The position numbers and the translations under genes are program-made. From Candidatus Krumholzibacteriia bacterium (GTDB lineage Bacteria > Krumholzibacteriota > Krumholzibacteriia > WVZY01), in NCBI GenBank assembly GCA_036478295.1, contig JAZGDW010000013.1:1-14791 (forward strand): 14,791 nucleotides of DNA, read 5' to 3'. This document shows positions 1 through 14,791 of the stretch, piece after piece. The notes under the pieces were generated by a model. That model had not been told where the DNA came from. It made no database searches and saw only the letters and a program-made list of their open reading frames with translations. How positions within the stretch are numbered: position 1 is the first letter of the stretch; every line of letters starts with the position of its first letter.

Positions 1-473
1 TCCTCGCTGGTCCCGTTCGGCGAATACGCCATCTGGAGGAGAAATTCCTGCTGTTTCGGGGACACGGCGGAACTCTTGGTGAGCACCAGCACGATAGCGC
101 TGACAAAAAGCGTGCCGGTGACGGCGATCGCGTGATATCCAACCCCCGCCGCCATCCCGATCACCAGCGCAAAAAAGATGAAGATAATGTCGTGCGTTTC
201 CTTCACCGCCGTCCGGAATCGGATAATGGACATGGCGCCCACGAGACCGAAGGCACGCGCCAGGTTGTTGCCGATCACCATGATCACAACCGCGGTAATC
301 ATGGCCAGGATCACGAGTGAGTTGACAAACACGATCGAGTAGCCGGGCCCGCTATACGTCATTCGATACACGAGCGCAATCACCAGACTGCAAGCCAAGG
401 CCACCAGTATGTTGCCCATGACGCTACTGACAGCGACGTTGAACTGACCGATGTTCTGAAAGTCTTGCAGCAT
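1..473 (-). CDS. DUF4956-family membrane protein (partial, 3' end outside the window)
   Basis: Absent from the ORF track because it has no stop in the window. Manual translation from the ATG at 473: MLQDFQNIGQFNVAVSSVMGNILVALACSLVIALVYRMTYSGPGYSIVFVNSLVILAMITAVVIMVIGNNLARAFGLVGAMSIIRFRTAVKETHDIIFIFFALVIGMAAGVGY... The motif 'IGNNLARAFGLVGAMSIIRFRTAVK' is typical of DUF4956. It starts 7 nt after the VTC gene stop, the usual gene pairing. Confidence 0.9.
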   Translation of the reverse strand, partial: MLQDFQNIGQFNVAVSSVMGNILVALACSLVIALVYRMTYSGPGYSIVFVNSLVILAMITAVVIMVIGNNLARAFGLVGAMSIIRFRTAVKETHDIIFIFFALVIGMAAGVGYHAIAVTGTLFVSAIVLVLTKSSAVSPKQQEFLLQMAYSPNGTSE

Positions 474-480
474 TATCCAA

Positions 481-1263
481 TCACGTTCCCAACATTCTCG
501 GGCGCCAGGCGAAGGTTCCGTTCCCTTCATACTTCGCCCAGGTCCCAGTGTTTCCCGTTCGCCTGCGGCTGGCATCCAGACAGATCGTGTACTTGGACAC
601 CGGAGTTCTGCTCAGACTGTACTGTTTGATTACCTGCCGGAGCCACAGGGGCAGTCCCCTTCTGAATTTCACTTCCAGAACAAAGTGCTTCAGCATGGCG
701 TACTGCATTTCACTCTCTTCGAACAATTCATGGAGCGACGGGTGCACCAGGTAGCGCAGGTTCTTGTCGAAGGTAATCCTCAGCTCGGGGTTGAACTTCG
801 AATGATAGGCCTCTCGTTCGTAGGCGATGAGCACGCTGGGTTTGAGAGACCTGCTGAACACGTGGTAGAAGAATTGTCGCGCGTGCCGGGCATCCCCGTT
901 ATCGGTCCGAATGTATTTCTCGATATCGCCGGTGCGGAACAGGTCCGCCAGGTGCCCGTGGAGCAAGGCAGCCCGGCCCTTTGTGACCCAGTTCACGTAT
1001 TTCCTTTTTATTTCCAACACGGCGGCACTCTCATCAGTGTGCTCATTATAACCCCGGATGCGGATCTTCTTTCGAACCGAGATACCTTCGATCCTCTCGA
1101 GGTAATATTCCATCTCTGCCGTGTCGAAATAGATGCTCCTCACCGTATATTCTTTTGCATCCCTCTTGTCCGCGTGCTCGTCCACGTTGACATAGGGCCG
1201 CATGAGCTTTCTGATAGCGGGCAGGTGCTCCAGAGAAACCGGGTATTTGTATTCCAAACGCAC
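481..1263 (-). CDS. VTC-domain (CYTH/triphosphate tunnel metalloenzyme) polyphosphate polymerase-like protein
   Basis: 260 aa with motifs RLEYKY (N-terminal ExK), YTVRSIYFDT, RKKIRIRGYN, LEIKRK, YEREAY, RITFD, VLEVKF and SKY. GTG start preceded by GGGGA. Confidence 0.92.
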   Translation of the reverse strand: MRLEYKYPVSLEHLPAIRKLMRPYVNVDEHADKRDAKEYTVRSIYFDTAEMEYYLERIEGISVRKKIRIRGYNEHTDESAAVLEIKRKYVNWVTKGRAALLHGHLADLFRTGDIEKYIRTDNGDARHARQFFYHVFSRSLKPSVLIAYEREAYHSKFNPELRITFDKNLRYLVHPSLHELFEESEMQYAMLKHFVLEVKFRRGLPLWLRQVIKQYSLSRTPVSKYTICLDASRRRTGNTGTWAKYEGNGTFAWRPRMLGT

Positions 1264-1272
1264 GGTGGTCCC

Positions 1273-2346
1273 CTACCCGAAGAGTGATCTCAAGAAACGC
1301 AGCACATATTCTCCCGGGCGGACATAACCGCATTGTATGGAACAGCGGATCATGAGCCCCGGCACCAACTCGCTCGCGTCTCCGTTAGTTACGGCGGTCG
1401 CCATCAATACCTGCTCCCCGTTCAGCGGGCGTGCCCGGCTGTCCAGCGTCAGCAATGTCGCGTCGGGGACGCTGGCGATGTCCGACGCCTTCACCTCGAC
1501 CGTTTGCTGTGGTGAAACGTAACGCCGCTGCCGCCATTTTACGGGCATAACGATTACATATTCCGTCATATCACCGACCACCAACAGGGTGTCTCCGGAG
1601 AACACGTGGTAGGCCGTTCCGGAAATCGGAGAAATCAATGTAAAATCAGCCAGCCTTTTCTCCAGGACCTCGATCTCGTCCCGTGTCGCCCAGATTTGAG
1701 ACCGGATGAATTCTATCTGTTCTTTCTTGGCGCCGCTCTCCACACTTTGCAGCCGCGCTTCGGCGATTGTGACGTCGATGTCGTCGAGCACCGATTTTCC
1801 CAGCTCGATTTCATACTCTTCCTCGGAAATCAGCCCCCTGTCGTACAGCGACCTCAGGCGCGCGAGAATTCTTTGACGCTCCTCGACCTGTTTCTTGCTG
1901 CTCGCCAGCTGCTGCTGCGCTTCCCTGACGACGGATTCCTTCTCGCCGGTGAGGTACAGCTGCAACGACGCCTCGGCAGTCGCAAGCTCGCCTCTCAGCT
2001 CGGCGATTCGTCTTTCGGTCTCATTGGAGTGGATGGCGCCGATCGTGTCCATCGCGGCGATGGCGGCGCCGGCGACGATGTGCGGCCTGAGGTTGAACGC
2101 GACAGCGTCTCCCCGCTCGAACTGCGTTACCGAGTAGGCCTGGCGGACACCGCGCTTGTGGTCGACGAGCACGGCGATCAGCCGCCCGTCCGTACCTTTG
2201 GAAACGACCCATTCGCGAGACGCGATGACCTTTCCCGGAACGTTGACGGAATACGGCAGATCGATCGGCAATAGCAGAAACCCGACGCACACTGCGACGA
2301 GAATAAGCAGATAGACGACCGTCCTGCTTGAAATGGCAACTCTCAT
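1273..2346 (-). CDS. HlyD-like membrane fusion / periplasmic adaptor protein
   Basis: N-terminal TM (VVYLLILVAVCVGFLLL), VNVPGKV strand, first lipoyl half-motif (GAAIAAMDTIGAI), long coiled coil with GLISEEEYE turn, second lipoyl half-motif (LISPISG) and a C-terminal barrel (LVPGLMIRCSI). Stop lies 9 nt before the VTC start. Confidence 0.78.
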   Translation of the reverse strand: MRVAISSRTVVYLLILVAVCVGFLLLPIDLPYSVNVPGKVIASREWVVSKGTDGRLIAVLVDHKRGVRQAYSVTQFERGDAVAFNLRPHIVAGAAIAAMDTIGAIHSNETERRIAELRGELATAEASLQLYLTGEKESVVREAQQQLASSKKQVEERQRILARLRSLYDRGLISEEEYEIELGKSVLDDIDVTIAEARLQSVESGAKKEQIEFIRSQIWATRDEIEVLEKRLADFTLISPISGTAYHVFSGDTLLVVGDMTEYVIVMPVKWRQRRYVSPQQTVEVKASDIASVPDATLLTLDSRARPLNGEQVLMATAVTNGDASELVPGLMIRCSIQCGYVRPGEYVLRFLRSLFG

Positions 2347-2671
2347 GTTAAATGCTCGCGCTGTCTATACTACGTCGTTGGCCAAGATAGCGTTACGCGG
2401 TCGAGCAGGACGATACTCCTAGCGAAACGAGGTGAACAATCTAGCGAGACCGGCTACACCCGTTCAATGCGCCGGAACACTACGCAGGCAGCTCCTGAGA
2501 GATTTAGATATATGCAACCGACCAAGACACGCGCACTCGTGCCACAAACCCTTGCCCCTATGGAAAGGTAATTACATAGTCTACCACGAAATCAGGCAGA
2601 AAACAACCGGTTTTGGAGCCCTGATTGGGAGGGATGGCGAGGGCCGGGGATGTCCTTGGGGCGGCAGAAAG

Positions 2672-4168
2672 TCACCGAATATAGCCCAGGGACCGCAGTT
2701 GCTCCAGGCGCTCCGACTGGGCCACGGCCTCCCGGATGCGCTCCTGCCGGGCGGCCTGCCACTCGCTGGTATCGTGGGTCCTTAGGTAGCGGATGGGATG
2801 GTCCTCGAGCCAGGCTGTCTCGACTACCCCCCGGAGCAGCTGACCGTCCAGGTCCTCACCCAGCGGGATCCCCTTCAACGCAAGAAGCGTGGGTGCGATA
2901 TCGAGCACGCCACCGACGACCGGCGTCACCCCCGGTTTCACGCGGGCGCCGGCACCCGCCCGGCGGGCGCTCCTGATGTGCGCGCCCGCCGCGATGAACA
3001 CGCCAGGCGGCGCGTCCAGGTGGTGGGCGGAATTCGTGTACTGTGGCGGATCCTCCGGTGAGAAGATGCGTTCGTTGTTGATGGCGTGCATGCCGTGGTC
3101 GGACACGATGATTACCGTGGCACTGTCTGGCGCGGCCTGGATGATCTCGCCGAGTACGCGGTCGACGTACGCGTAATAGTCATCGATGATGTTGCCGTAA
3201 TTGTCTATCTGTTCCCGGCTCGGTGGATTCGTGAACTCCTCCGGGTGGGCGTACCGCCAGAACCGGTGCGCCGCGACGTCGGGACCCCCTACATAGACGC
3301 TGAGGAGGTCGAACGGTTCACCCGAGCGGAGGATGTCCCGCGCCACTTCGATGTACGTCGCGTCGGCTCGGAACGCCCACAGCGTCTGGTCCCACATGAG
3401 CCGGCTGAATTCCGTCGACGGGTGCGGTCGCGTACCGAAGATACTCTCAGTCAGCCGGTCCATCGAGTTCTCCGTTTCTTCGAGGATACTCATGACCTTG
3501 TTTTGATAGTCCAGGGGATGCACCTGGTTCTCGACGCCTCTAAGCAGGCTGCCCTTCCAAAGGGCGCGCTGCGGATCGTGTAATACCGAGGTCGTATTGG
3601 TCTGGCTCACCATCGTCCCGTTTATCTTTTCGGCCGGATACGTCATCCACCAGCCGATGCAGTGAACCTTGAGGTCGTAATCGCTGAGGATATTCCAGAA
3701 GGCCTTGGTCTCGCGGTGACCGCTCGTGTAGTAGCGGTACTCGCGCCGCCCCCCCTGGTTTGTCTCGTAAACGAAATGGCGAATGCCGTGCTGGCTCGGC
3801 ACTTTGCCTGTGGCAATGGAAGTCCAAATGACAGCCGAGTACGTCGGCACCATCGATTCCAGTCTGCCGAACACGCCCCGCTTCATGAGACCCGCCATAA
3901 CGGGGAGCCTTCCCTCCTCGATCAGTGGATCCAGCACCCGCCACTCGAGGCCGTCGACGGCGAAGAGAATGACGGGCTCGCCCGAGACCGCCTCACGCGT
4001 CGAAGTGCTCGAGCACGCGGGCAGGATTGCGGCGGCGAACGTTCCGAGCAGCAATGCGGAACAGAGCAAGCGAGTACGCGAGGGGCGCCGGAGGGGGCGG
4101 ATTCCCACTCCCGCATGGCCCCCGCAATCGGTTCGCGGCCGGCGCGTTATTCTGGAGAATCGTGCCAT
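2672..4168 (-). CDS. Alkaline phosphatase superfamily (type I phosphodiesterase / NPP-like) protein, probably exported or a lipoprotein
   Basis: Metal/catalytic motifs LFAVDGLEW, PTYSAVIWTSIATGK, GPDVAAHRFW, IIVSDHG and SAHH, then LDIAPTLL and the C-terminal LEQLRSLGYI tail. A hydrophobic stretch ends in ILPAC (lipobox-like). Start is uncertain: ATG 4168, ATG 4201 or GTG 4108; the track's 4243 is likely too long. Confidence 0.85.
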   Translation of the reverse strand: MARFSRITRRPRTDCGGHAGVGIRPLRRPSRTRLLCSALLLGTFAAAILPACSSTSTREAVSGEPVILFAVDGLEWRVLDPLIEEGRLPVMAGLMKRGVFGRLESMVPTYSAVIWTSIATGKVPSQHGIRHFVYETNQGGRREYRYYTSGHRETKAFWNILSDYDLKVHCIGWWMTYPAEKINGTMVSQTNTTSVLHDPQRALWKGSLLRGVENQVHPLDYQNKVMSILEETENSMDRLTESIFGTRPHPSTEFSRLMWDQTLWAFRADATYIEVARDILRSGEPFDLLSVYVGGPDVAAHRFWRYAHPEEFTNPPSREQIDNYGNIIDDYYAYVDRVLGEIIQAAPDSATVIIVSDHGMHAINNERIFSPEDPPQYTNSAHHLDAPPGVFIAAGAHIRSARRAGAGARVKPGVTPVVGGVLDIAPTLLALKGIPLGEDLDGQLLRGVVETAWLEDHPIRYLRTHDTSEWQAARQERIREAVAQSERLEQLRSLGYIR

Positions 4169-4484
4169 GTATCCGTTCGAATTCGGGTGCGTCTCAAACA
4201 TGTTATCACACCCTGCGTGCTTCCCGCAGCAGCGGCGCCTCACGGGGCCGGCTGTGGCGCATACCAGCCCCGCATCCCAGGGCCGTGAGGCACGACTCCG
4301 GCCGCCCGGTCTCGGTACCGGGTCTCACAACCGACCGAGCGGCTTCCCGGCGCTTTATGTACCGCTTGTGTTGCTGGCCGCTCAGCGCTACATATAGTAA
4401 CTGTTCAACGGACGGCGTCCGCAGAGGCTACACTAGCGACGGATGGTCGCGTACTCGGGTCGAGTAAAAAAACGGGGAGCGGTG

Positions 4485-5535
4485 ATGACAGAAGAGTCGA
4501 CGAGGCGAGAAGTACTCGATCGAGTAAAGGCGATCCGCCAGGCGCAGAAGCGCATCAAACAAAAAATCAAACAGATTCTGCATATCCTCGAACTACTCGA
4601 GGACGGGACTTACCCCATCAACCAGCCGTGGATATCCTTGCGCAGGGTCACTCGAGTCGAGGACCTGCGAGCGAAAAAGCATACGACATTGAGAAGCGCG
4701 CTGATGGCGGATCTCGAGGATCTCAAGGCGCTGCTGGAGAGTCTAAAGAACGACTCGAAGACGCTCCGGCGCGAATTGTTCCGGCGCAAGACGCGGCGCA
4801 TGCGGCGGCGTGCGAGAAGATCAGAGAGGGATTTCAAGCGCTGGGCGGAGGAGATACTCAAGGAAGCGGAGAAGGAGGGTTACCTGTCCGATGAGGAAGT
4901 GGAAAAGCTGCGGGCGGAAGCGGAGGACGTGGTAGACCAGTGGGCGGACGTCCTCGACCGGGACCCATCCCGCAAGAACATAGAAAAAACGCTGGGTTCG
5001 ATGTACACACCGCTCGCTTTCGGTAGTGATCCGGACAAGGGCAAGCTAGGCAAGGCGATGGACTCACTGAAACAAGCGGGGCGCAAGCGCGCCAACCGGG
5101 CCAGGGCGCGCTTCGAGAAGACCCCGACCCGCGAGAACGCCAAACGCCTGTTCAACAGTGGTGCCGAATCCCAGGTGCTCGGCGGTGAGGAAGACGATCT
5201 GTGGGACACCGTTCAGGAAACGGCCGGGAAGCGCGCCGGGAATGCGGAGCGTCGCTTTCGCCGCAACCAGACGGTCAGGATACTACCAGCTCATGAATCG
5301 CATGCAGATTTTTTATGGAGAAGCGGGCGGCACCCTGTCCATTTATTCGCCGCGGGGATTTCGTCCGACGAACCGCACCAAACCCTACCCGGTCGATCGG
5401 GGCGACACACTGCCACGGCTTTCGAAGAAATTCTATGGGAAGCGGGGCTATTGGGACGTCATCTACCGGAAGAACCATACCGTTATTCCCAAGTCCTTGG
5501 CCTTGAGGCCGGGCATGAAACTCGCCATACCCTAA
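4485..5535 (+). pseudogene. Coiled-coil/helical-repeat protein with C-terminal LysM domain, frameshifted at about 5280 (pseudogene, sequencing error or recoding)
   Basis: ATG 4485 follows GGGGAG. The first frame reads as protein up to RRNQTVR (5279). The +1 frame from 5281 continues YYQLMNRMQIF... into a clear LysM domain, YPVDRGDTLPRLSKKFYGKRGYWDVIYRKNHTVIPKSLALRPGMKLAIP*, with the stop at 5533-5535. Confidence 0.8.
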
Positions 5536-5622
5536 ATGGCCTGAACCCTGAGTAGCCTGACCGACGACGCGGCCGCGGCCCTGGCACACCCCCAACACCA
5601 CCCACATCCCGGAAAGTGCGGT

Positions 5623-6687
5623 TTAGAAAGACCAGTTGACGATTGGCAGGATCGGCCAGCTGTCCTTGCTTTTTATGACATTGACAAGGCCGATCTGAAG
5701 ACCTTTGGTCATGGTCGTGGCCATGTTGACCACGCCGAGCTGAAACCCGGACATCGTCCCTGCAACATTTACTATGCCCCACTGCCAGCCACTGGCTTCC
5801 CCCTCCACGAAGTTCACCGCATTCAATCCAAAACCCGTGAATAGACCCGTGGTGTGGCCGACAAGACCGATGTCCAGGCCGGACATCTCGTCGTTGACGC
5901 CGTAGAGTATGTTCCAGCGGAACCAGCGGATCGAGGTATCCTCGGCATATATCTGTACTGGCTTGAACAGGGCGACCTGGAACGGCTTGGTTATCTGCTC
6001 TTTCGTGATGACGAGCTGCGCCTCACCGGCGAGGTTGTTCTCGCTGTCCCGGACGAGCAACCGGGCAGTGCCCGGCTTGAGTCCCGTGACGGTAATCTTG
6101 TCGCCTTCCTCGACGGTTGACGCCAGACCAGCGGGCTCCACCTCGGAGATAAGACTCGACGCCGGCGCCTTGAGGACCTTCTCCGCTGCGTTGTAATAAA
6201 TCACTCGGAATTTCGCTACTTCATCGACGCCGATCGTCTTCGACGCGGGGTCCAGCTCCATGTGGGATGGTTTCGTTCCTCGTTCGACAACGTCTTTCAC
6301 GGAGTTCTTCAGTTTTCTATCCCATTTGAAATCCTCGATGGCTTCCCGGTACTCTTCATCCCACAGCCGCCACAAGAGATTCTCGAACTGTGTGTTATTT
6401 CCAATGTTGGCAAAGTAGTGGTTGAGTACGGGGAACACATAGTCCCGGAGCGTCTTGGTGTTCTTTCTGTAGTTGCCACGCCTGATCATGGCTTCCATAC
6501 ACGGGAAGGTCTCGTCGTAGCTTCCCTCGAAGTACTTCTCGTTAACCATCTGAGGCGTCTTCAGCTCGTCACACAAAGCCTGCGACATCTGCGCGCGCGC
6601 GGGGCCGACGACAACAATGCCCGCGCAGATACACACCAGGCCGAACACGCAGAAGCTCCAACGTTGCATCGCAGAATGATGAGTCAT
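5623..6687 (-). CDS. Secreted/surface protein: helical N-domain + Ig-like (Big_2-like) domain + C-terminal Gly-rich G-x-Q-x-G-x-V-N repeats (LA_2272/VC2662-like)
   Basis: Signal peptide ending ARA-Q. Ig-like segment MELDPASKTIGVDEVAKFRVIY...ITVTGLKPGTARLLVRD. Repeats GLDIGLVG / GFGLNAVN / GWQWGIVN / GFQLGVVN / GLQIGLVN. Terminal PILPIVNWSF. ATG 6687 follows AAAGGT, 7 nt after the upstream stop; ATG 6669 is an alternative. Confidence 0.75.
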   Translation of the reverse strand: MTHHSAMQRWSFCVFGLVCICAGIVVVGPARAQMSQALCDELKTPQMVNEKYFEGSYDETFPCMEAMIRRGNYRKNTKTLRDYVFPVLNHYFANIGNNTQFENLLWRLWDEEYREAIEDFKWDRKLKNSVKDVVERGTKPSHMELDPASKTIGVDEVAKFRVIYYNAAEKVLKAPASSLISEVEPAGLASTVEEGDKITVTGLKPGTARLLVRDSENNLAGEAQLVITKEQITKPFQVALFKPVQIYAEDTSIRWFRWNILYGVNDEMSGLDIGLVGHTTGLFTGFGLNAVNFVEGEASGWQWGIVNVAGTMSGFQLGVVNMATTMTKGLQIGLVNVIKSKDSWPILPIVNWSF

Positions 6688-6694
6688 TCGATCA

Positions 6695-7930
6695 CTACCT
6701 TTCACCGTAATAAAACGTGAGACCGGTACCACTTTCCGCACCGTTGACGCGGAACCTGAAATCGCCTTCATGGCTCATACCACCCCGCGAGACGACTTCC
6801 CGGAATTCGCTATCGTCGGTATTGAACTTGATTTCATAGTTTCCGACAAACAATTGCTTTCTGTGACTCAGCTGGTGGGAATATGTAAAACCGTTGATGA
6901 GCAGTTCGTAATCCACGTTTATAACTGTTGGCACGGCGGCCTCGCCCAGATAGCCCACTATCGTCACCAATGCCCGCGCGCTGTCGACCGGGGCCACCGG
7001 CTGCAGGTTTATCGTGACTAAGCTATCCTCGCTCTTGACGAATCCTCGAACCGTCTTTTCCAGGAGGACGGTCTGGTCGACGATCGGTCGTTCTTTTGGA
7101 AAGATGTGGACCACGTACTCGCCGGCCCCGAGGTGACGGACCAGCCTGTTGTCCTTCAGATCGAGGAGCTCCGAACTGTCACCTATCCTGATCTTGCATT
7201 CGTAATCGGACTCGAAGGTCACCTCAAAACCCTCGATGACCGTCGTCCCGAAAAGGAACAAGACGAGGGCCAACAGCGGCACCAGCACACCCAGCGTGAT
7301 GGCATGGGCCGTATACGGCCCCCCAAAACCGTTCCAGAATCTCGCCGGCCAGTCGAACCAGACCCGCGGCCTGATGTCGACCTCAATATCCTCTTCGATG
7401 CCCTGGTCCGTCAGGCTCTGGTTCACGTTGATCTTCTTGCTGCCGGTGTGAAACCGGAACCGTTTCAGGGTCTTGATCTTCTTGCCGAAGAACTTGTACT
7501 TGCCTTTTATCTCGTTTAGCTTTCCTTCGATTTCGATCGAAAACTTTTCGGCCGGGTTCACAACCGCAGTCTCGTTGACGGCCACCGTCTTTCGCTTCCG
7601 AAACATCACGCGTCGCTGATCGGCGGGGTCGTCTCCCCAGAACCGCATGCGGAGATTTATCTTGGAGGCGACGTATCGAACGACGATATCGTCCTGTTCC
7701 TTGATCCCGGCGGCCGCTTCCCGGATATTCAACTTCAGGTTCAGTTTGACATGGTTGTGCTCGACAACGACCTTATCCGGAGCCGCCTCGGGATGCAGCA
7801 ATCCTCTCGCGATGGCCCTGGGTATGATACGGGCCAGGTTCTCTTCGATGGTCTCGCCATCTTCGAACGCGGTGAATGTCGGACTGTCATTCCCCGCCTG
7901 GTCCCTATATATAACCTGATAGGTTGCCAT
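6695..7930 (-). CDS. Single-pass membrane protein with two N-terminal ubiquitin-like (beta-grasp) domains and C-terminal PEGA-like beta-rich domains
   Basis: 411 aa ORF. EDGETIEENLARI...APDKVVVEHNHVKLNLKLNIREAAAGIKEQDDIVVRY and KRFRFHTGSKKINVNQSLTDQGIEEDIEVDIRP follow the ubiquitin pattern by eye. TM segment AITLGVLVPLLALVLFLFG at about 7247-7305. Then VTFESDYECKIRI...LGAGEYVVHI and LLING...LFVGNYEIKF (PEGA-like). Confidence 0.65.
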   Translation of the reverse strand: MATYQVIYRDQAGNDSPTFTAFEDGETIEENLARIIPRAIARGLLHPEAAPDKVVVEHNHVKLNLKLNIREAAAGIKEQDDIVVRYVASKINLRMRFWGDDPADQRRVMFRKRKTVAVNETAVVNPAEKFSIEIEGKLNEIKGKYKFFGKKIKTLKRFRFHTGSKKINVNQSLTDQGIEEDIEVDIRPRVWFDWPARFWNGFGGPYTAHAITLGVLVPLLALVLFLFGTTVIEGFEVTFESDYECKIRIGDSSELLDLKDNRLVRHLGAGEYVVHIFPKERPIVDQTVLLEKTVRGFVKSEDSLVTINLQPVAPVDSARALVTIVGYLGEAAVPTVINVDYELLINGFTYSHQLSHRKQLFVGNYEIKFNTDDSEFREVVSRGGMSHEGDFRFRVNGAESGTGLTFYYGER

Positions 7931-7955
7931 TCAGACTATGTCACTATCTATCTAT

Positions 7956-9035
7956 TTAGATAATTTGGAGGTCTTCGATGATCTGCTTAATCTGTTCTTT
8001 ACCTCGCGCCATCAGCGGCCCGATATCCACACAAAAATCCTCCCACGCGAGCCCCTTGATATCCGGTCGGCGCGCGTAGAATTTGGAGAGCACGTCCCCC
8101 TCACCGTATTGCCGCCTGTAGTAGTCTTCGTGCCAAACGGATAACGGGTAGACGACTTCAAAAAAGAGCGTGCTCGGACTGACGCGGCCCAGGTTGCGGA
8201 TTATACCGAGTTTGCTCAACAGGAACGATTGAAGCGTTAGAATCCCCAGAGCTTTTAAAAGAAGGTCCGAGCTGAGATTTTCACGGAGGATTCGGTTTTG
8301 TTCTGTCTGTTTCTTCGAAACTTCCGCCAGCATGTCGTCGAACAGGCTGGTGAGGTCGGCCAGCGCTCCCCCGGCAAATGCCTGGACGAGCTCGAGTCGC
8401 GCGACGGGCGGCATGTGCCCGTCAACGAGCGTCGCGTCGTTACCGTCGTACTTCAAGAGTCCAATGACCACGCTGTCGGCATAGAGGTTGCGAATGTCGT
8501 TCTTGTAACCGTCGATGTCGACGAGGTCCACCGCCACCCCGGGGTAACTGAGCTCTATCGAGCCGTCGCCGGCCTTGATCCCCTGCTGTTCCAGGACCCT
8601 GCCGACCTCGTAGTCGACCTTCAGATCCGGCCTCAGCTGCTGCCTGGCCGCGACAACGTATTCACCCGCCGTGAAATTACCCTTGTCCTTGACGACCTTG
8701 ACAGATGCCTCGGGCCACCCGAGGTGCCGCTGGTTGTTCTCGACGACGATGACGACCTTGCCGCTCGGCGCTAGCGCACGTAACGTCCTCGGCACGTTGA
8801 AGGTAATCTCGACCGAGCCCTCCGCGTGGTTCGTCTCCGCAATCGTAAGCGCCGCGACGCCCGCCGAAGAGGACGTGTCGATCTCGATAATACCCGGTTG
8901 ATCCATCGACAACCGGCTGATATCGGCCGCGACCGACAGCGCCCGCTGGTCCGAGTGCGACAGGTGAAGCTCGTTCACCAGCAGCCCGTCGTACCAGCTG
9001 ATTCCGAGAAAACGCTCGATGTCCCTACGTGCCAT
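7956..9035 (-). CDS. TssK-like (type VI secretion baseplate connector) protein, apparently lacking the C-terminal head domain
   Basis: Colinear TssK-like motifs: ISWYDGLLVNELHL (cf. VxWxEGM..PQHF / VNWxDGM..KxHF), LRALAPSGKVV, DGHMPPVARL (cf. DxxF/YIPP), SPSTLFFEV (cf. HPExLY) and a final helix DIGPLMARGKEQIKQII. ATG 9035 follows GGAGG at 9051-9047 and gives 359 aa. Confidence 0.68.
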   Translation of the reverse strand: MARRDIERFLGISWYDGLLVNELHLSHSDQRALSVAADISRLSMDQPGIIEIDTSSSAGVAALTIAETNHAEGSVEITFNVPRTLRALAPSGKVVIVVENNQRHLGWPEASVKVVKDKGNFTAGEYVVAARQQLRPDLKVDYEVGRVLEQQGIKAGDGSIELSYPGVAVDLVDIDGYKNDIRNLYADSVVIGLLKYDGNDATLVDGHMPPVARLELVQAFAGGALADLTSLFDDMLAEVSKKQTEQNRILRENLSSDLLLKALGILTLQSFLLSKLGIIRNLGRVSPSTLFFEVVYPLSVWHEDYYRRQYGEGDVLSKFYARRPDIKGLAWEDFCVDIGPLMARGKEQIKQIIEDLQII

Positions 9036-9089
9036 TCTTTGCCCTACCTCCGGGGTGCGATCCACGCGAAGCATCTGCCCGCGACCCTG

Positions 9090-9119
9090 AGCCTACTACC
9101 CTAACCCTAGCTTTGTCAA
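9090..9119 (-). promoter_or_regulatory. Sigma70-type promoter of the tssK-like operon
   Basis: Perfect TTGACA (9119-9114), an 18 nt spacer and TAGGCT (9095-9090), 55 nt upstream of ATG 9035. The -35 is bracketed by the inverted repeat CTAGC (9107-9111) / GCTAG (9123-9127). Confidence 0.6.
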
Positions 9120-9230: not shown

Positions 9231-9968
9231 TCAGAACCGCCACCGGGAACCCACCAACACCATCCCACCGGTCCCGAGACCGAGCTGCACGGCAGGAGGC
9301 CTCGTTTCTTTTCTGCCACGAAACACTCTGAGGAAACCGTAGGCCATCACCCCGGCCCCCGCCGCGATCAGGACGTAGTTCGTGGCGCCCAGTTCCCTAC
9401 CGCTTTCCGAGCCATCCGGCGAGTTCTTTTCGTCGCCGAACCCCACCACCGCACCGACCCCGAGGGCGACAAATCCGGACCCGACGAGAAGCAGGCCGCT
9501 ATTGATGTCACGGGCGGACGGGTCCACGCCCGCCATGGCAGCATCATCACCGTGGCTCGAGGGGTCGTCTTGCGGGAACTCCAACGAGATTACCTGTGGC
9601 TTCTCCGGCGGCTCCGCCAGTTGCTCGGCGTTCTTGCCTTTCTCGCGCGCAGCGGCCGCTTGCTTCTGCATCTCGAGCTGTCGTTCTCTCAGCCCGGCCA
9701 GGTCGATGATCTCTCGCCCTTCGAACACCTCGAGAATGATGCGCCTGACGTCTCGCGCGTCGAACGTGACGAGCTTGGATTCACGGCTGCCGCCTCTTTC
9801 AAGCAGGATGGTAATCTTCTTGAGGCTTAGCGGATTGAGATGCAGGGTCGTCTGGTTGTCCAGCTCTCCCCGGTACGTCGTGCCGTCGGTGAGAATCAAG
9901 ATGTCCGCTTTACAGAGCGCGACGCAAAACGCCGGTAGTATGAGTGCCAAAACCGCTGCTCGTCTCAT
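9231..9968 (-). CDS. Hypothetical exported/outer-membrane-associated protein
   Basis: Signal peptide MRRAAVLALILPAFCVALCKA, small beta domain DILILTDGTTYRGEL, charged linker, two Gly-rich hydrophobic helices and a terminal beta segment ending in aromatic F (LVGSRWRF). GGGGG lies upstream of the ATG. Confidence 0.7.
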   Translation of the reverse strand: MRRAAVLALILPAFCVALCKADILILTDGTTYRGELDNQTTLHLNPLSLKKITILLERGGSRESKLVTFDARDVRRIILEVFEGREIIDLAGLRERQLEMQKQAAAAREKGKNAEQLAEPPEKPQVISLEFPQDDPSSHGDDAAMAGVDPSARDINSGLLLVGSGFVALGVGAVVGFGDEKNSPDGSESGRELGATNYVLIAAGAGVMAYGFLRVFRGRKETRPPAVQLGLGTGGMVLVGSRWRF

Positions 9969-10261
9969 GCTCGCCCCCAGGTCATCCCACCGAATCGCAG
10001 GTCGCCATCGTACCGTTGCTCCTAGAATACACCAATCTCCGCACCGGTTTCAAGAGCGTCCTGTGCGGGTGGCGTTGCTACCGGGCGATTGACTGACAGG
10101 TGCCGGAACCGGCGTCTATTCGAACTCCGCCCCGAAGACTTTCACACAGTTCATCGAGGTAGATATAGCAGGTAATGCGTGAGGCGGTTGAACCACTGTC
10201 TCTCGGAACCGACGACCGTTTCCGAGTCCCCAGCCAGCATGGCCTGGAAACCAGCCAGGTG

Positions 10262-10600
10262 TCGACATATAATGGGGTAAAAGTGTTGTTGAAATTACCC
10301 CATTATACAAATACATTACCCCAATAAATACGGAAGCGGCGGCCGGTGTTGGCGTGATTACTGCTTGCCACAGAGAGCCATGCCAGAAATGCCGTAATCG
10401 ACATATAATGGGGTAAAAGTGTTGTTGAAATTACCCCATTATACAAATACATTACCCCAATAAGTACGGAAGCGGCGGCCGGTGTTGGCGTGATTACTGC
10501 TCGCCACAGATAGGCCATGCCAGAAATGGCGTAATCGACACATTAACGGGGTAATTTTAGCCCTGACGTTACCCCATTTATGGGCTCATTACCCGTTTAC
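10262..10600. repeat. Tandem direct repeat: two nearly identical 136/137-bp units plus a diverged partial third unit
   Basis: Units begin with TCGACA at 10262, 10398 and 10535. Units 1 and 2 differ at about 5 positions (4 substitutions and 1 indel). The third keeps only the GGGGTAA-N14-TTACCCC...TTACCC architecture. Confidence 0.95.
10268..10327 (+). promoter_or_regulatory. Sigma70-like promoter overlapped by an operator-like inverted repeat (second copy 136 bp downstream)
   Basis: Perfect 13-bp inverted repeat TATAATGGGGTAA (10268-10280) - N14 - TTACCCCATTATA (10295-10307), plus a third half-site TTACCCCAATAA (10316-10327). TTGAAA (10289-10294) - N17 - TACATT (10312-10317) points toward fic. 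Confidence 0.6.
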
Positions 10601-10616
10601 CGGAGGGACGCGCCAC

Positions 10617-11693
10617 GTGAGGTCATTGAACCTTAACTATTTAAAAAATATAACGCTAAAGACGCCCCAGGGATCCACGCTCAAGAAGATCGGTGAGTAT
10701 CAAGGCAAGCAGGCTCTTTTTGCACGCCAGACGCCCGAGATTCTCGAATCGCTCAAACAGGTCGCGCAGATTGAATCGAGCGAATCCTCGAACCGCATCG
10801 AAGGGGTCACGGCGCCGCCTGGGCGCATCAAGGCACTGGTAATGGAATCGACCCAGCCGCAGGACCGGTCCGAGCAGGAGATCGCTGGTTACCGGGACGG
10901 GCTGGACCTGGTCCACGAATCCGCCGAATACATGGCGCTCTCTCGCATGAGCATCCTGCGCTTGCACTCGACGATGTACCGTTACCTGCCGCAACCCGGT
11001 GGCCAATGGAAAACACGTGACAACAAGATCATCGAGATAACCGACAAGGGCAAGGAGGTCCGGTTCGAGCCGGTAAGCGCCAAGAAGACGCCTGAGGCCG
11101 TGGAGACGCTGATTCGAAACTTCGACCAGGCGGTCAACCAGCACCAACTCGAGCCCTTGATTGTCATCCCGCTGGCGATCCTCGATTTCCTGTGTATCCA
11201 TCCGTTCACCGACGGCAACGGCAGGGTGTCCAGACTTCTCACGCTCTTGCTGCTCTATCATTTTGATTATCACGTGGGTCGTTATATCAGTCTCGAGCGA
11301 ATCATCGAAGAGTCGAAGGTGACGTACTACGAGACCCTCAAGCAAAGCTCTCAGAAATGGCACGACGGAGAACACGACCCGCACCCGTGGATGAACTATT
11401 TCTGGGGAGTGTTGCTGCGCGCCTACCAGGAATTCGAAGAACGTGTCGGTGAGATTCGAACCACCAAGCTCTCCAAGACAGAACAGATCCGGATGGCTGT
11501 CGAGCGGAGAATCGGACTCTTTGCCATCTCGGACATCGAGGCCGATTGCCCGAAAGTCAGCCGTGATATGATCCGTCTCGTGCTGCGGGAGCTCCGCGAC
11601 GAAGACGTGATCGTCGTTCGCGGCCGGGGCCGAGGCGCCAAGTGGCTCCGGGTCGCCGAAAAGGAGCCGGAAACCGTTAAGGGCAAGTCATAG
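10617..11693 (+). CDS. Fic-family protein (class II, N-terminal inhibitory motif) with C-terminal winged-HTH
   Basis: Canonical Fic motif HPFTDGNGRVSR and inhibitory (S/T)xxxE(G/N) motif SNRIEG. C-terminal FAISDIEADCPKVSRDMIRLVLRELRDEDVIVVRGRGRGAKW is wHTH-like. GTG start follows GGAGGG. Confidence 0.95.
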   Translation: MRSLNLNYLKNITLKTPQGSTLKKIGEYQGKQALFARQTPEILESLKQVAQIESSESSNRIEGVTAPPGRIKALVMESTQPQDRSEQEIAGYRDGLDLVHESAEYMALSRMSILRLHSTMYRYLPQPGGQWKTRDNKIIEITDKGKEVRFEPVSAKKTPEAVETLIRNFDQAVNQHQLEPLIVIPLAILDFLCIHPFTDGNGRVSRLLTLLLLYHFDYHVGRYISLERIIEESKVTYYETLKQSSQKWHDGEHDPHPWMNYFWGVLLRAYQEFEERVGEIRTTKLSKTEQIRMAVERRIGLFAISDIEADCPKVSRDMIRLVLRELRDEDVIVVRGRGRGAKWLRVAEKEPETVKGKS

Positions 11694-11797
11694 ACGCCGA
11701 TTAGCCGTCGTCGCAGCATCTGGTCTCGTTCAACGGATGTCGAACCGGCTTGTGGCGCCGCCGGCAGCCCGCCACACGTTGCAGATCGAACGCGCCG

Positions 11798-11813
11798 TGG
11801 CACAAAAAATGCT
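11798..11813 (+). promoter_or_regulatory. Sigma54 (RpoN) -24/-12 promoter
   Basis: TGGCAC-AAAAA-ATGCT matches TGGCAC-N5-TTGCW with one mismatch. Exact GG(11799-11800)-N10-GC(11811-11812) spacing, about 40 nt upstream of ATG 11852. Confidence 0.75.
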
Positions 11814-11851
11814 CCTCGCGTTCATCGGTAAACCCTGTCAAGGATTTGACC

Positions 11852-12793
11852 ATGCCCGAAGCAGGCCTGAAGCGCACAACGGACTCCGAGACCCACCGCG
11901 CCAATGAAGACGCGGCCAGAATCGGCCGTCTCAACGACCAGGAGACACGGCACTGGTACCTTCTTGCCGCAATCTCCATCATCAGTACCGCGGGCCTTGC
12001 GTTCGCAGCCTATCCGATCCTCAGCCAGCGCATGGCGGACGTGTGGCCATGGGCCAATACCAATCTCGTTCTTCTCATTGGTCTCATGCTGTCGATCCTC
12101 ATGCTGGTCGGCTACCTGACCCTGCAGCAGCGTACAGCGAGAACGGTCCGCATCCAGGTCCAGAACATGATGCAGGACTCATCGCGTCGTGCACGTCAGA
12201 ACACGGCCCGTATGCACGCCCTTCTCAACGTCAGCCGCATGATGGGCTCGGTGACCAACCTCGAGAACGTCTTCAATTCAATCACCAGCACCAGCCTGGA
12301 GATATTCGACTGCCAGCAGGCCACGCTCATGCTCCTCAACGAGAAAACGAACGAACTGGAGACGCGGGCCGTCACCGGCCACCTGCAGGGGGAACAGGTC
12401 AAGCACGCCACGCAAAAGGTCGGAGAAGGCATCGCCGGGTGGGTCGCCGAGACCACCGAGCCGCTGATTCTGACCCGCGATACCGATCCGTCGCAGTACC
12501 CGAACCTCAAGCTCAAGAATCTCTCCATCTCGGCCGCAATGGTGGTGCCGATTCTCTTGAGAGACGAGCTGGTCGGCGTGCTGAACATCAGCAGCCGCGC
12601 GCCCGACGCTTACTACACCGATGAAGATCTGCAGGCGCTGCAGGTATTCGCCGAGAACGCCGGAACGTGCATCCGACACACCGAACACGTGGAGTGGATG
12701 AGACAGACCATCCAGAATCTGCAGCAGGAACATTCTTCCGGTTCACAACACGAGAAGGTCCACGATATCGAACACTCGAACGAGCCTTCCTGA
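11852..12793 (+). CDS. Membrane-anchored GAF-domain protein with no output domain
   Basis: Two TM helices (WYLLAAISIISTAGLAFAAY; LVLLIGLMLSILMLVGYL), a coiled coil, then a GAF domain (ATLMLLNE...KVGEGIAGWVAETTEPLIL...SAAMVVPILLRDELVGVLNI...YTDEDLQALQVFAENAG). ATG 11852 follows AAGGA; the track's start at 11750 would overlap the sigma54 promoter. Confidence 0.88.
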   Translation: MPEAGLKRTTDSETHRANEDAARIGRLNDQETRHWYLLAAISIISTAGLAFAAYPILSQRMADVWPWANTNLVLLIGLMLSILMLVGYLTLQQRTARTVRIQVQNMMQDSSRRARQNTARMHALLNVSRMMGSVTNLENVFNSITSTSLEIFDCQQATLMLLNEKTNELETRAVTGHLQGEQVKHATQKVGEGIAGWVAETTEPLILTRDTDPSQYPNLKLKNLSISAAMVVPILLRDELVGVLNISSRAPDAYYTDEDLQALQVFAENAGTCIRHTEHVEWMRQTIQNLQQEHSSGSQHEKVHDIEHSNEPS

Positions 12794-13033
12794 AACAGAT
12801 CTTTTCTTAGCACTAGTTAGTATTGTTTTGTTGCGACTCGATGTCCGAGTGACCGTGTTCTTAACGTGTCGCATGTGGCCGTCGACAAGTTTTTTCGTAA
12901 ACCTGGTTACGCTTTATTTCTACGGCACGCGACTTCCCGAACCTCCCCCCCCGGGACAACTAACTCAAAGCAAGCGGGTTACGTAACGGCGCCGCCCTGG
13001 CAACCAAGGCTTGCGTTTCCTGCAGATTTTCTT

Positions 13034-13079
13034 ATTCTATATATAGTAGTAGTGTTCAATGCACCGCTACATGTTGTAT
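13034..13079 (+). promoter_or_regulatory. Tandem NrdR boxes
   Basis: attCTATATATAGtag (13034-13049) and ccgCTACATGTTGtat (13064-13079) match the NrdR-box core CwAyATrTwG. They are 30 bp apart and lie directly upstream of a ribonucleotide reductase gene. Confidence 0.85.
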
Positions 13080-13143
13080 AGTTTGCTCCCGTTCGATGAT
13101 GAGGTCGGTCGGACACAGAAAATTGATTTGGGAGGAAGCAATT

Positions 13144-14791
13144 ATGAATCTCAGTGAAAACGCCTTCACGGTTCTTGAGAGAAGGTACCTGCGCAAGAAA
13201 GAAGGCAACGGTCTTTTCGAAACAGTCGAGGAATTGTTTCGGCGTGTGGCAAACAACATCTCACAGGCGGAACTAAACTATCACCACAATGAACGCGAAA
13301 GAGAGAAACAGGCCGACGAGTTCTTTGACATCATGACGAACTTCGAGTTCCTGCCCAATTCTCCGACCCTAATGAACGCAGGCACGGACATCCAACAACT
13401 CGCCGCGTGTTTCGTCCTCCCCGTCGGCGATTCCATGGAGGCCATTTTCGACTCCGTCAAGAGCGCGGCGCTGATCCACAAGAGCGGCGGCGGTACGGGT
13501 TTTTCCTTCTCGCAGCTGCGCCCGAAGGACGACGTCGTACAGAGCACCCGCGGGGTTTCGAGCGGTCCGATTTCCTTTATGGCGGTGTTCGACGCCGCAA
13601 CCGAAGCGGTCAAGCAGGGCGGCCGCAGGCGCGGGGCCAACATGGCGATTCTGCGGGTCGACCACCCCGATATCCTGGACTTCATCGAGTCCAAGAAAAA
13701 CCACGACCGCCTGAACAATTTCAACATATCGGTCGCCCTCACCGACGCGTTCATGGGAGCGCTGGCGAGCGATGCGGAATACGATCTCACGAACCCGCGT
13801 ACCGGGGTGACCGAGGGCACCCTGTCTGCGCGCAGGGTATTCGAGCTTATCGTGCAGTCCGCTTGGCAAAGCGGTGAGCCGGGAATAGTCTTTATCGACC
13901 GCATCAACAGGGACAATCCAACCCCGCACCTGGGAGAGATCGAGAGTACCAACCCGTGCGGCGAGCAACCGCTTCTGCCCTACGAGTCATGCAATCTCGG
14001 ATCGTTGAATCTCAGCGCCGTGGTGCGAGAGGAGAACGGTGAGAACTTTATCGATTACGACCGCCTGGCAAGAAATATCCGCGTCGCCGTCCGCTTCCTC
14101 GACAACGTCATCGACATGAGCGTGTACCCCATACCCGAGATAGGGGAACGGACCCGCGCCAACCGCAAGATCGGCCTCGGAATCATGGGGTTCGCAGACA
14201 TGTTGATAAAGCTCCATGTCGCGTACGACTCGGATGAAGCCATTGACTTGGGCAGAAAAATCATGCGTTTCATTCAGCAGGAATCGGCCACTGCGTCGGA
14301 AGAGCTCGCCGAAGCGCGCGGACCTTTTCCCGCTTTCCAGGGAAGCGCGTTCGACCTCAGCGGCAAGCGTCCCCGGCGAAATGCGACGACGACCACCATC
14401 GCACCAACCGGTACTATCAGCATCATTGCCGGAGCTTCCAGCGGCATCGAACCACTCTTCGCCCTGGCGTACGTCCGCAACGTTCTCGACAACGACGAGC
14501 TCGTCGAAGTCAACCCCGTGTTCAAGGAGATCGCAGAGCGCGAGGGATTCTACAGCGACGAGTTGATGGAGCGTATCGCCACGGAAGGCACAGTGGAACA
14601 TATCGACGACGTACCCGTGCAGTGGCGCACTGTTTTCCGGACCGCGCACGACATTTCACCGGAGGCGCACATTCGCATGCAGGCCGCCTTCCAGGAGCAC
14701 ACGGACAACGCCGTGTCGAAGACAGTGAATTTCGCGAGAGATGCGAGCACCGGCGACGTGGAGGAGGTCGTCCTGCTGGCCCACAAGCTGG
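13144..14791 (+). CDS. nrdJ: Class II (adenosylcobalamin-dependent) ribonucleotide reductase (partial, 3' end outside the window)
   Basis: Absent from the ORF track because it has no stop in the window. ATG 13144 follows GGAGGA: MNLSENAFTVLERRYLRK...FLPNSPTLMNAG...LAACFVLPVGDS...KSGGGTGFSFS.LRP...VKQGGRRRGANM...HPDILDFI...NFNISV...GEPGIVFID...TNPCGEQPLLPYESCNLGSLNL...RKIGLGIMG...TTIAPTGTISII...SSGIEP...TDNAVSKTVNF. The frame is intact at the checkpoints I tested. No ATP-cone or intein is visible. Confidence 0.96.
   Translation, partial: MNLSENAFTVLERRYLRKKEGNGLFETVEELFRRVANNISQAELNYHHNEREREKQADEFFDIMTNFEFLPNSPTLMNAGTDIQQLAACFVLPVGDSMEAIFDSVKSAALIHKSGGGTGFSFSQLRPKDDVVQSTRGVSSGPISFMAVFDAATEAVKQGGRRRGANMAILRVDHPDILDFIESKKNHDRLNNFNISVALTDAFMGALASDAEYDLTNPRTGVTEGTLSARRVFELIVQSAWQSGEPGIVFIDRINRDNPTPHLGEIESTNPCGEQPLLPYESCNLGSLNLSAVVREENGENFIDYDRLARNIRVAVRFLDNVIDMSVYPIPEIGERTRANRKIGLGIMGFADMLIKLHVAYDSDEAIDLGRKIMRFIQQESATASEELAEARGPFPAFQGSAFDLSGKRPRRNATTTTIAPTGTISIIAGASSGIEPLFALAYVRNVLDNDELVEVNPVFKEIAEREGFYSDELMERIATEGTVEHIDDVPVQWRTVFRTAHDISPEAHIRMQAAFQEHTDNAVSKTVNFARDASTGDVEEVVLLAHKL

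Follow-up and report, generated by a model that had tools for sequence, protein, structure and literature searches.

A head-less TssK-like protein, a ubiquitin-like membrane protein and an exported partner: a candidate envelope-anchoring module of a divergent type VI-like secretion system

What is the role of a TssK-like gene that sits in a compact three-gene operon without any other component of a type VI secretion system (T6SS)? The question is raised by the 14,791-bp stretch of DNA analyzed here (the window), which is the whole of contig C35 of a 3.52-Mb metagenome-assembled genome (MAG) of 316 contigs (90.9% complete, 4.96% contamination). A first-pass annotation had singled out three co-oriented genes (here P1, P2 and P3) as a complete unit that might form a new membrane complex, serve as an adaptor for a T6SS encoded elsewhere, or represent a TssK repurposed for another job. 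Our analysis argues for the second of these options. In Latescibacterota-like bacteria the trio probably anchors the baseplate of a very divergent T6SS-like machine to the envelope, and in this genome it has become detached from the gene cluster in which its relatives are found. The three genes are:

P1: positions 7956-9035, minus strand; head-less TssK-like protein of 359 aa, with the shoulder at about residues 1-220 and the helical neck at 224-358
P2: positions 6695-7930, minus strand; bitopic membrane protein of 411 aa
P3: positions 5623-6687, minus strand; secreted envelope protein of 354 aa

The layout agrees with the coordinates first given, all three genes lying on the minus strand with gaps of 25 nt between P1 and P2 (7931-7955) and of 7 nt between P2 and P3 (6688-6694). 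A GGAGG precedes the ATG of P1, and this start agrees with the homologues. The GC content at third codon positions (GC3) is 0.72-0.76 in P1, P2 and P3, and the neighboring genes are alike. The unit was said to contain no hcp, vgrG, sheath, tssEFG, tssJLM or clpV, and a Pfam scan of 12 open reading frames (ORFs) of the window indeed found none of these.

P1 is fairly described as a remote TssK homologue that has the shoulder and the neck and lacks the head; this description draws on profile comparisons, Foldseek, VIA-align and the ESM Atlas. The P1 family forms 8 clusters in an index of 5.8 billion proteins, one of them named TssK by NCBI. A search of 1.84 billion proteins at E<=0.001 gave 36 representatives, none longer than 371 aa. 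The TssK model TIGR03353 was matched by all five P1 homologues tested (21.5-25.4 bits; cut-off 100), and PF05936 at E<=1 by 14 of the 33 family members scanned (best E 9.8e-4), with no other family recurring. When a profile of the 33 family members was compared by means of hhalign with a profile of 8 canonical TssK proteins of the same phylum, the two aligned over 184 columns (P1 6-219 versus TssK 1-201) with a probability of 82% and an E value of 1e-5. Within this alignment lies the motif W-x-(D/E)-G-(L/M)-x-(L/V)...H-(F/L)-x-H/Q-x-D; in the 33 sequences W14 is invariant and D16, G17, V20, H24 and H27 are invariant or nearly so. The N-terminal part of P1 hence has what defines a TssK shoulder, namely a beta-sandwich with a Trp/hydrophobic pocket motif. 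The corresponding pocket of TssK is described as binding the LG-repeat feet of TssG (PMC9600919).

Structural comparisons point in the same direction. The AlphaFold2 (AF2) model of P1 is poor, with a mean predicted local distance difference test score (pLDDT) of 48.4 and values of about 70-86 in the helices at 224-358. A Foldseek search with this model returned TssK at ranks 1-15 throughout (E 2.3e-3 to 3e-2; the next match had E 0.16), and the five best VIA-align rows were all TssK (Z 9.4-11.4; next row Z 8.1). Against 5y0e_C, VIA-align gave a Z of 10.1 and 2.8 A for the root mean square deviation (rmsd) over 109 residues, placing model residues 224-358 on TssK residues 195-311. Support for a predicted four-helix neck is moderate, as helical bundles can match by chance at such Z values. 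The ESM Atlas holds the exact P1 protein (predicted template modeling score, pTM, 0.73) and relates it to ‘TssK’ clusters of 366-383 aa, mostly from Bacteroidota, at template modeling (TM) scores of 0.66-0.70 and to a 447-aa ImpJ cluster (100% PF05936) at 0.59. A profile search of P1 against PDB sequences returned designed helical repeat proteins only and no TssK. A C-terminal head was not found: P1 ends where the TssK neck ends. Its C-terminal loop is conserved and reads R-R-P-D-I-K-G-L in subfamily A. The protein also has no hydrophobic segment. The TssK fold proposed for the 359-aa protein in the first-pass annotation is thus borne out by the hhalign, Foldseek, VIA-align and Atlas results.

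The second protein is of a different kind. In the AF2 model of P2 (mean pLDDT 73.3) a ubiquitin-like (Ubl) domain at 1-97 is followed by a second beta-grasp unit (119-186), a helix (205-227) and two beta-sandwich domains (229-310 and 319-408), and the hydropathy profile shows a single hydrophobic segment at 210-228, taken as a transmembrane helix. Foldseek matched the model to linear di-ubiquitin and ISG15 at E values of about 1e-7, and VIA-align gave Z 9.4 and rmsd 2.6 A over 79 residues (model 1-92), with di-ubiquitin at Z 8.8 over 2-187. At the level of the predicted structure, the ubiquitin-like fold is confirmed. With Arg-rich residues ahead of the helix and acidic ones behind it, P2 would be oriented N-in/C-out, with its Ubl domains in the cytoplasm and its beta-sandwiches in the periplasm. 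Just before the helix, a P...F.WP motif is invariant in 18 sequences from both subfamilies of the P2 family. PF18037 (Ubiquitin_5) was matched weakly by 4 of the 18 family members; none of the 18 matched TssN, TssO, TssL, TssM or any other T6SS model, and neither P2 nor the 18 members matched PF17555 (TssN) at E<=1. On the first-pass reading, the second gene should not be a plain member of a described T6SS membrane family; its product has a ubiquitin-like fold and no Pfam match to any of them.

P3 begins with a signal peptide, which is followed by a conserved N-terminal region with two invariant Cys, a Big_2-like immunoglobulin (Ig) domain and an LA_2272-type Gly-rich repeat domain that ends in ...NWSF. 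The C-terminal part passes the NCBIfam cut-offs of NF047436 (33.9 bits; cut-off 25) and NF047435 (32.2 bits; cut-off 30), and stays below that of the VC2662 equivalog (38.1 versus 140 bits). Structure rows of the ESM Atlas for P3 are Big_2 clusters and hypothetical proteins of about 160 aa, with TM scores by row of 0.67-0.77. Orthologues share only about residues 9-228 of the 354-aa form and then continue with a hydrophobic helix and a short tail. The only hydrophobic segment of the window protein is N-terminal, and since it has no counterpart of the orthologues’ C-terminal hydrophobic helix, it could reside in the outer membrane, in the inner membrane or in the periplasm. The orthologues of subfamily 2 carry a TIG domain. 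Each of the five aligned P3 sequences has an aromatic, beta-strand-like ...[VLW]-[STK]-F at its very C-terminus. A longer P3 frame starting at 6771 was also considered; it overlaps P2, and 5623-6687 was taken.

Do these three genes belong together, and with what? Five related loci came from 185,579 species genomes, 12 more from a metagenome scan, and further ones from a profile search of 208 genomes of the window’s phylum; duplicates were dropped (L055 equals L003, L056 equals L001, L020 equals L002, and L053 approximately equals L025). The synteny that had been predicted for the trio holds without exception: all 16 distinct loci that reach beyond P1, among them both subfamilies and an orphan copy, have P2 next to it, and in all 11 distinct loci that are long enough P3 comes after P2. 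Directly after P3, a ClpV-type double AAA+ ATPase is encoded in 9 of these 11 (L001, L003, L004, L005, L047, L048, L050, L051 and L053), the two loci without it being the window and L044. Downstream of ClpV, as far as the loci reach, there are a pair of genes for proteins of 231 and 470 aa, Hcp, VgrG, a TssF-like and a TssG-like protein and a PAAR-like protein. Several of these could be assigned to families. The 140-aa Hcp-like protein matches PF17642 below the cut-off (E 1.9e-5 to 0.012 in 5 of 7 copies scanned), VgrG has Phage_GPD and Phage_base_V, and the PAAR-like protein matches DUF4280 (E 3e-24). The TssG-like protein (220-240 aa) matches PF06996 at E 2.2e-4, below the cut-off, and TIGR03347 at E 0.0036, and it carries LG-containing stretches, including some near the C-terminus. 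The TssF-like protein (504-506 aa) is named from its position, its size and its TssG-like neighbor, the 506-aa form having no Pfam or PDB match. Apart from P2 and P3, the conserved 11-gene cluster encodes no membrane proteins. The trio is therefore complete locally, as first described, and is not so in a wider sense: in relatives a longer cluster opens with these three genes. The stand-alone arrangement, seen in 2 of 11 distinct loci, is derived and in the minority, and it is no sign of an autonomous system.

If the trio was separated from such a cluster, the remainder should be present elsewhere in the genome, and this is what we found. The closest relative with an intact cluster is L001 (Candidatus Latescibacterota; genome G031), which belongs to the same family as the window. 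The window’s genome has the following parts:

ClpV: contig C24, positions 21-2381, minus strand; 71% identical to that of L001
Genes for the 230-aa, 472-aa, Hcp-like, VgrG, TssF-like and TssG-like proteins: contig C276, from 29662 down to 23098, minus strand
PAAR-like DUF4280 gene: contig C129, positions 37653-38009, minus strand; 77-81% identical to the copies in genomes G067 and G045

Identities of the C276 genes to L001 are 66% for the 230-aa protein, 68% for the 472-aa protein, 51% for the Hcp-like protein, 44% for VgrG and 49% for the TssF-like protein. The start of C24 (1-80) abuts the end of C276 (29589-29668): across the junction the minus strand has GGAGG, 6 nt, and the ATG of the 230-aa gene, and the gap between ClpV and that gene would be 26 nt, versus 27 nt in L001. 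Upstream of ClpV on C24 there is a divergent gene and not P3; the ancestral cluster therefore broke between P3 and clpV. In G067 and G045 the PAAR-like gene closes the cluster, and its presence on C129 means that the system is spread over at least three loci here. As the rest of the system lies on C24, C276 and C129, of the options originally listed, an adaptor that serves a T6SS located elsewhere in the genome agrees best with the data. The genome search that had been proposed for T6SS parts turned out mixed. Hcp-like, VgrG and TssF/G-like proteins were found and models for TssL and TssM had no match, as expected; no match to VipA/VipB or TssE was obtained.

One might object that a trio apart from its usual neighbors is a decaying remnant without function here, or an artefact of assembly or binning. 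The MAG, with its many contigs and its level of contamination, would allow for the latter, and the window’s P1, P2 and P3 are the most divergent of their subfamily (P1 48-53% identical). We nevertheless hold this explanation to be very improbable. All three frames are intact with coding-like GC3, and P1, P2 and P3 have kept the columns that are invariant in their families; their divergence is proportionate to that of the core genes. The trio also lies in the middle of its contig (5.6-9.1 kb of 14.8 kb), next to the same upstream neighbor as in the same-family relative L001.

Five carrier genomes, one of them a complete chromosome, were searched for T6SS parts that the cluster does not provide. 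DotU (PF09850) and IcmF-related (PF06761) models matched in none of the five, while the E. coli control rang; no search for TssJ was made. The VipA model likewise returned nothing in the five genomes and its controls rang, VipB returned nothing in G000, G031, G045 and G067, and the phage sheath model matched in G068 only, on another contig. The 231-aa/470-aa pair between ClpV and Hcp occupies the position of tssB/tssC (C276:27552-29662 on the minus strand, which is the same pair as L007:17853-19963; L001:15825-17932). Its hhalign probability versus canonical TssC is 1%, and the 470-aa family comprises 46 clusters, all labelled hypothetical.

From these data the following scenario can be put together. 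P1 would be the TssK of the machine, and its shoulder, by means of the W-x-D-G-L-L-V...H motif, would bind the baseplate wedge at the TssG-like feet. The helical neck would trimerise, so that P1 trimers would join the TssF/G-like wedge via their shoulders. The head with which canonical TssK contacts TssL/TssM is missing in P1, and P2 may have taken over the docking, its tandem cytoplasmic Ubl domains binding the head-less TssK in the way in which the Ubl domain of Bacteroidota TssN binds TssK. P2 would span the inner membrane with its single helix and extend its two beta-sandwich domains into the periplasm. P3, presumably exported by means of its signal peptide, would complete the periplasmic or outer part with its N-terminal and Ig-like domains, and its variable C-terminus could serve as a membrane or surface anchor. 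In the window’s genome a rearrangement would have split the trio from the rest of the cluster, and the trio is presumably transcribed alone.

Several observations weigh against this scenario. The window’s P1 has no TssK match at E<=0.1 in Pfam or NCBIfam, and its family scores far below the curated cut-offs of PF05936 and TIGR03353. The poor P1 model weakens the Foldseek and VIA-align numbers, and with no Foldseek match at E<=0.001 the ranking alone was used. GPW_gp25 (TssE) returned nothing in the five carrier genomes save one match below the cut-off in G068, and a TssN search of the same five gave no match with its control silent as well. The 231-aa/470-aa pair has no match in Pfam, NCBIfam or PDB sequences and no similarity to VipA/VipB or to phage sheaths. 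The label ‘sheath’ for it is hence positional, and a contractile tail is inferred. The C-terminus of the window’s P3 differs from that of all orthologues. The assignment of C35, C24, C276 and C129 to one organism derives from binning (91% complete, 5% contamination). Finally, no evidence of contact between P1, P2 and P3 was obtained; complex prediction for P1 with P2 1-195, which was run without controls, gave a median score of 0.25, the mark being 0.32, a result that speaks neither for binding nor against it.

The last point also bears on a different explanation, according to which P1 is the TssK and P2 and P3 are accessory proteins for assembly, positioning, regulation or target sensing, the membrane complex being absent or built from proteins that were not recognized. 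T6SS accessory genes are many and varied according to a 2026 review (PMC13584744), and the C-terminus of P3 differs among lineages, as would be expected of an adaptor or sensor. In contrast, P2 and P3 accompany P1 in every informative locus of both subfamilies and in the orphan copy, the cluster has no other conserved membrane protein, and the carrier genomes hold no match to TssL or TssM models. We therefore regard an accessory role as unlikely, and prefer to see P2 and P3 as the candidate trans-envelope part of the anchoring module.

How widespread is this arrangement? Strong P1 matches occur in 8 of the phylum’s 208 genomes, dispersed among four families. Canonical TssK was found in 12 of 101 sampled genomes of the phylum (10 strong, 2 weak), in none of five from the window’s family and in none of nine from family f2 of the same order. 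In 15 genomes of the phylum (L027-L041) the N-terminal W-x-DGLLV...H motif led to a third TssK-like family, with proteins of about 483 aa, and PF05936 matched weakly in 3 of 4 of those tested (E 0.001-0.0045). The phylum therefore has canonical, 483-aa and head-less types of TssK.

On the complete chromosome G067 there are two trios that are 27-29% identical, one linked to the cluster (L005) and one orphan, and a single 470-aa gene.

Orphan trio: L044, positions 9919-13486 (G067:C1, about 2.371-2.374 Mb)

LpoB-like/TPR and beta-helix/subtilase genes flank this orphan trio, and no T6SS genes do. Such duplicates suggest yet another explanation, namely that detached trios are exchangeable or alternative anchors for one tail, or that they do a job independent of the T6SS. 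Sequence identities would agree with exchange: relative to L001, the core is 66-68% identical in the L053 lineage and 68-71% in the window, while P1 and P2 are only 30% and 25% identical in the former and 53% and 47% in the latter. Trees of trio and core moreover place the window differently. In an approximately unbiased (AU) test the trio data rejected a grouping of the window with L053 (p-AU 3e-8); the core data did not reject the trio topology (p-AU 0.093), and the groups had been named after the trees were seen. A module swap is thus not established by the tree incongruence. Faster evolution of the trio could equally explain the identity gap, and as the window’s genome has one trio and one core, plain relocation is enough here. 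Exchange of the cassette is a possibility; as an explanation of the detached trios, exchangeable anchors or a T6SS-independent job appear improbable to us, somewhat more so than the accessory role discussed above. For the window we accordingly stay with an anchoring module relocated from its cluster.

A comparison with known systems helps to place this module. In the account of Bongiovanni et al. (2024, PMC10781749), T6SS-iii is reported in Bacteroidota only, and TssN of B. fragilis recruits TssK by a cytoplasmic ubiquitin-like domain, with tssK-tssN adjacency conserved. Both systems have, beside tssK, a gene for a membrane protein with a beta-grasp domain that is cytoplasmic in TssN and predicted to be so in P2. 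Further similarities are the lack of TssJ, TssL and TssM (here from carrier-genome searches for TssL and TssM), periplasmic Ig/PKD-like domains (in TssP), loci that can be split within the genome, and the Bacteroidota origin of most of the 366-383-aa ‘TssK’ clusters near P1 in the Atlas. The Hcp-like proteins found here match, weakly, PF17642 TssD only, which we take to be the Bacteroidota-type Hcp model. In contrast, TssN has five N-terminal transmembrane helices and one C-terminal Ubl domain, whereas P2 has two N-terminal Ubl domains, one transmembrane helix and putative periplasmic domains; T6SS-iii has five envelope proteins (TssNQOPR) versus two here, and P2 lacks PF17555. Because topology, domain order and family model all mismatch, P2 does not belong to the TssN family, and the best reading is that it resembles TssN in function.

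With canonical TssK of T6SS-i (5MWN, 5M30, 5Y0E, 6N38, 6GIY), P1 shares the shoulder with its Trp motif and the helical neck, and its family, though not the window’s copy itself, is clustered with ClpV, Hcp, VgrG and TssF/G-like genes. The differences are its length (359 aa versus about 445-450 aa) and the missing head, the C-terminal domain reported to bind TssL/TssM (PMC9600919). IglD of Francisella, described in the same source as the TssK homologue of T6SS-ii (8DQL), is likewise a TssK relative recognized mainly by structure, with an N-terminal pocket for its TssG partner. It is among the structural matches of P1 (VIA-align Z 7.4). Unlike P1, IglD has kept a flexible C-terminal domain, and its membrane complex is of the DotU/PdpB/IglE type. 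EccD/YukD of type VII secretion offers another case in which a membrane protein has a cytoplasmic beta-grasp domain that serves as a secretion scaffold, a similarity that has been pointed out for TssN (PMC10781749). EccD has about ten transmembrane helices. The last about 100 residues of the window’s P3 resemble the LA_2272/VC2662 surface-repeat proteins (NF047436, NF047435, NF047437). This domain is found in the window’s P3 only, in contrast to the helix-and-tail ending of the orthologues.

A literature search that did not cover subscription journals returned no prior description of the trio’s T6SS-like system. One Latescibacteria single-cell genome is on record with a conventional T6SS (10 of 13 core tss genes; 2015, PMC4454575), and the 2026 review distinguishes four T6SS classes, i to iv (PMC13584744). 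Whether a fifth should be added is a bolder matter. Such a class would combine a two-protein trans-envelope complex (P2 and P3), a head-less TssK docked via tandem Ubl domains, a sheath that is unrecognizable by sequence, and a portable trio cassette that can occur apart, duplicated or perhaps exchanged. We consider this conceivable and, at present, rather doubtful; the case for a T6SS-like machine that has a new anchoring module, which we favor, is all computational and derives from MAGs. For Proteobacteria (TssJLM) the mode of envelope anchoring is known, as it has been since 2024 for Bacteroidota (TssNQOPR), and the origin of T6SS membrane complexes is named as an open question in the 2024 paper (PMC10781749). 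If true, a third solution would be a small and tractable test case for the features that a membrane complex needs, and it could tell whether ubiquitin-like docking of TssK predates the Bacteroidota. Our results also highlight that T6SS-like systems of candidate phyla escape the standard models: TssK, Hcp, TssG and VgrG are hit weakly, and TssF and the sheath go undetected.

The surroundings of the trio in the window comprise the following elements:

TTGACA hexamer: positions 9114-9119 (read 9119-9114), minus strand, upstream of P1
Two terminator-like hairpins: positions 9179-9166 and 9158-9137, minus strand, in the interval that separates the hexamer from the upstream gene
Convergent ORF: positions 4443-5555, plus strand, bounding the trio where relatives have clpV
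Upstream gene for a 245-aa membrane protein: positions 9231-9968, minus strand, with a signal-like N-terminus and two C-terminal hydrophobic segments

The hexamer had been proposed as the trio’s own promoter. It is present, but a sigma-70 scan showed no promoter-like site on the minus strand upstream of P1, which leaves the promoter role unsupported; the one site that the scan gave in the region is on the plus strand (1.7 +/- 1.3 in shuffles). Terminator-like sites number six in the region, versus 3.3 +/- 2.0 in shuffles, and are weak evidence for the hairpins. The convergent gene reported downstream exists as an ORF, rich in Lys, Arg and Glu, but its coding-like composition ends near 5200, where GC3 falls from 0.72 to 0.50 and the GC content at second codon positions (GC2) is 0.69. 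This break suggests a frameshift or a shorter real gene. No Pfam family matched the ORF above the cut-off. A candidate fourth operon gene (5275-5607, minus strand) was rejected on its composition (GC3 0.55).

The 245-aa protein is 43% identical to the product of the gene just upstream of P1 in L001, and a homologue is absent from that position in L003-L005, so that its conservation there is limited to the closest relative. It may represent a fourth component peculiar to this lineage or just part of a conserved neighborhood, and its association with the trio is uncertain. The other neighbors in the window (3-2346 and 2672-4243 on the minus strand, 10617-14790 on the plus strand) are unrelated to the trio. 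They include DUF4956 and VTC-domain proteins (polyphosphate-related), an HlyD-like adaptor, a type I phosphodiesterase, a Fic-domain protein, a GAF-domain protein and the large subunit of ribonucleotide reductase.

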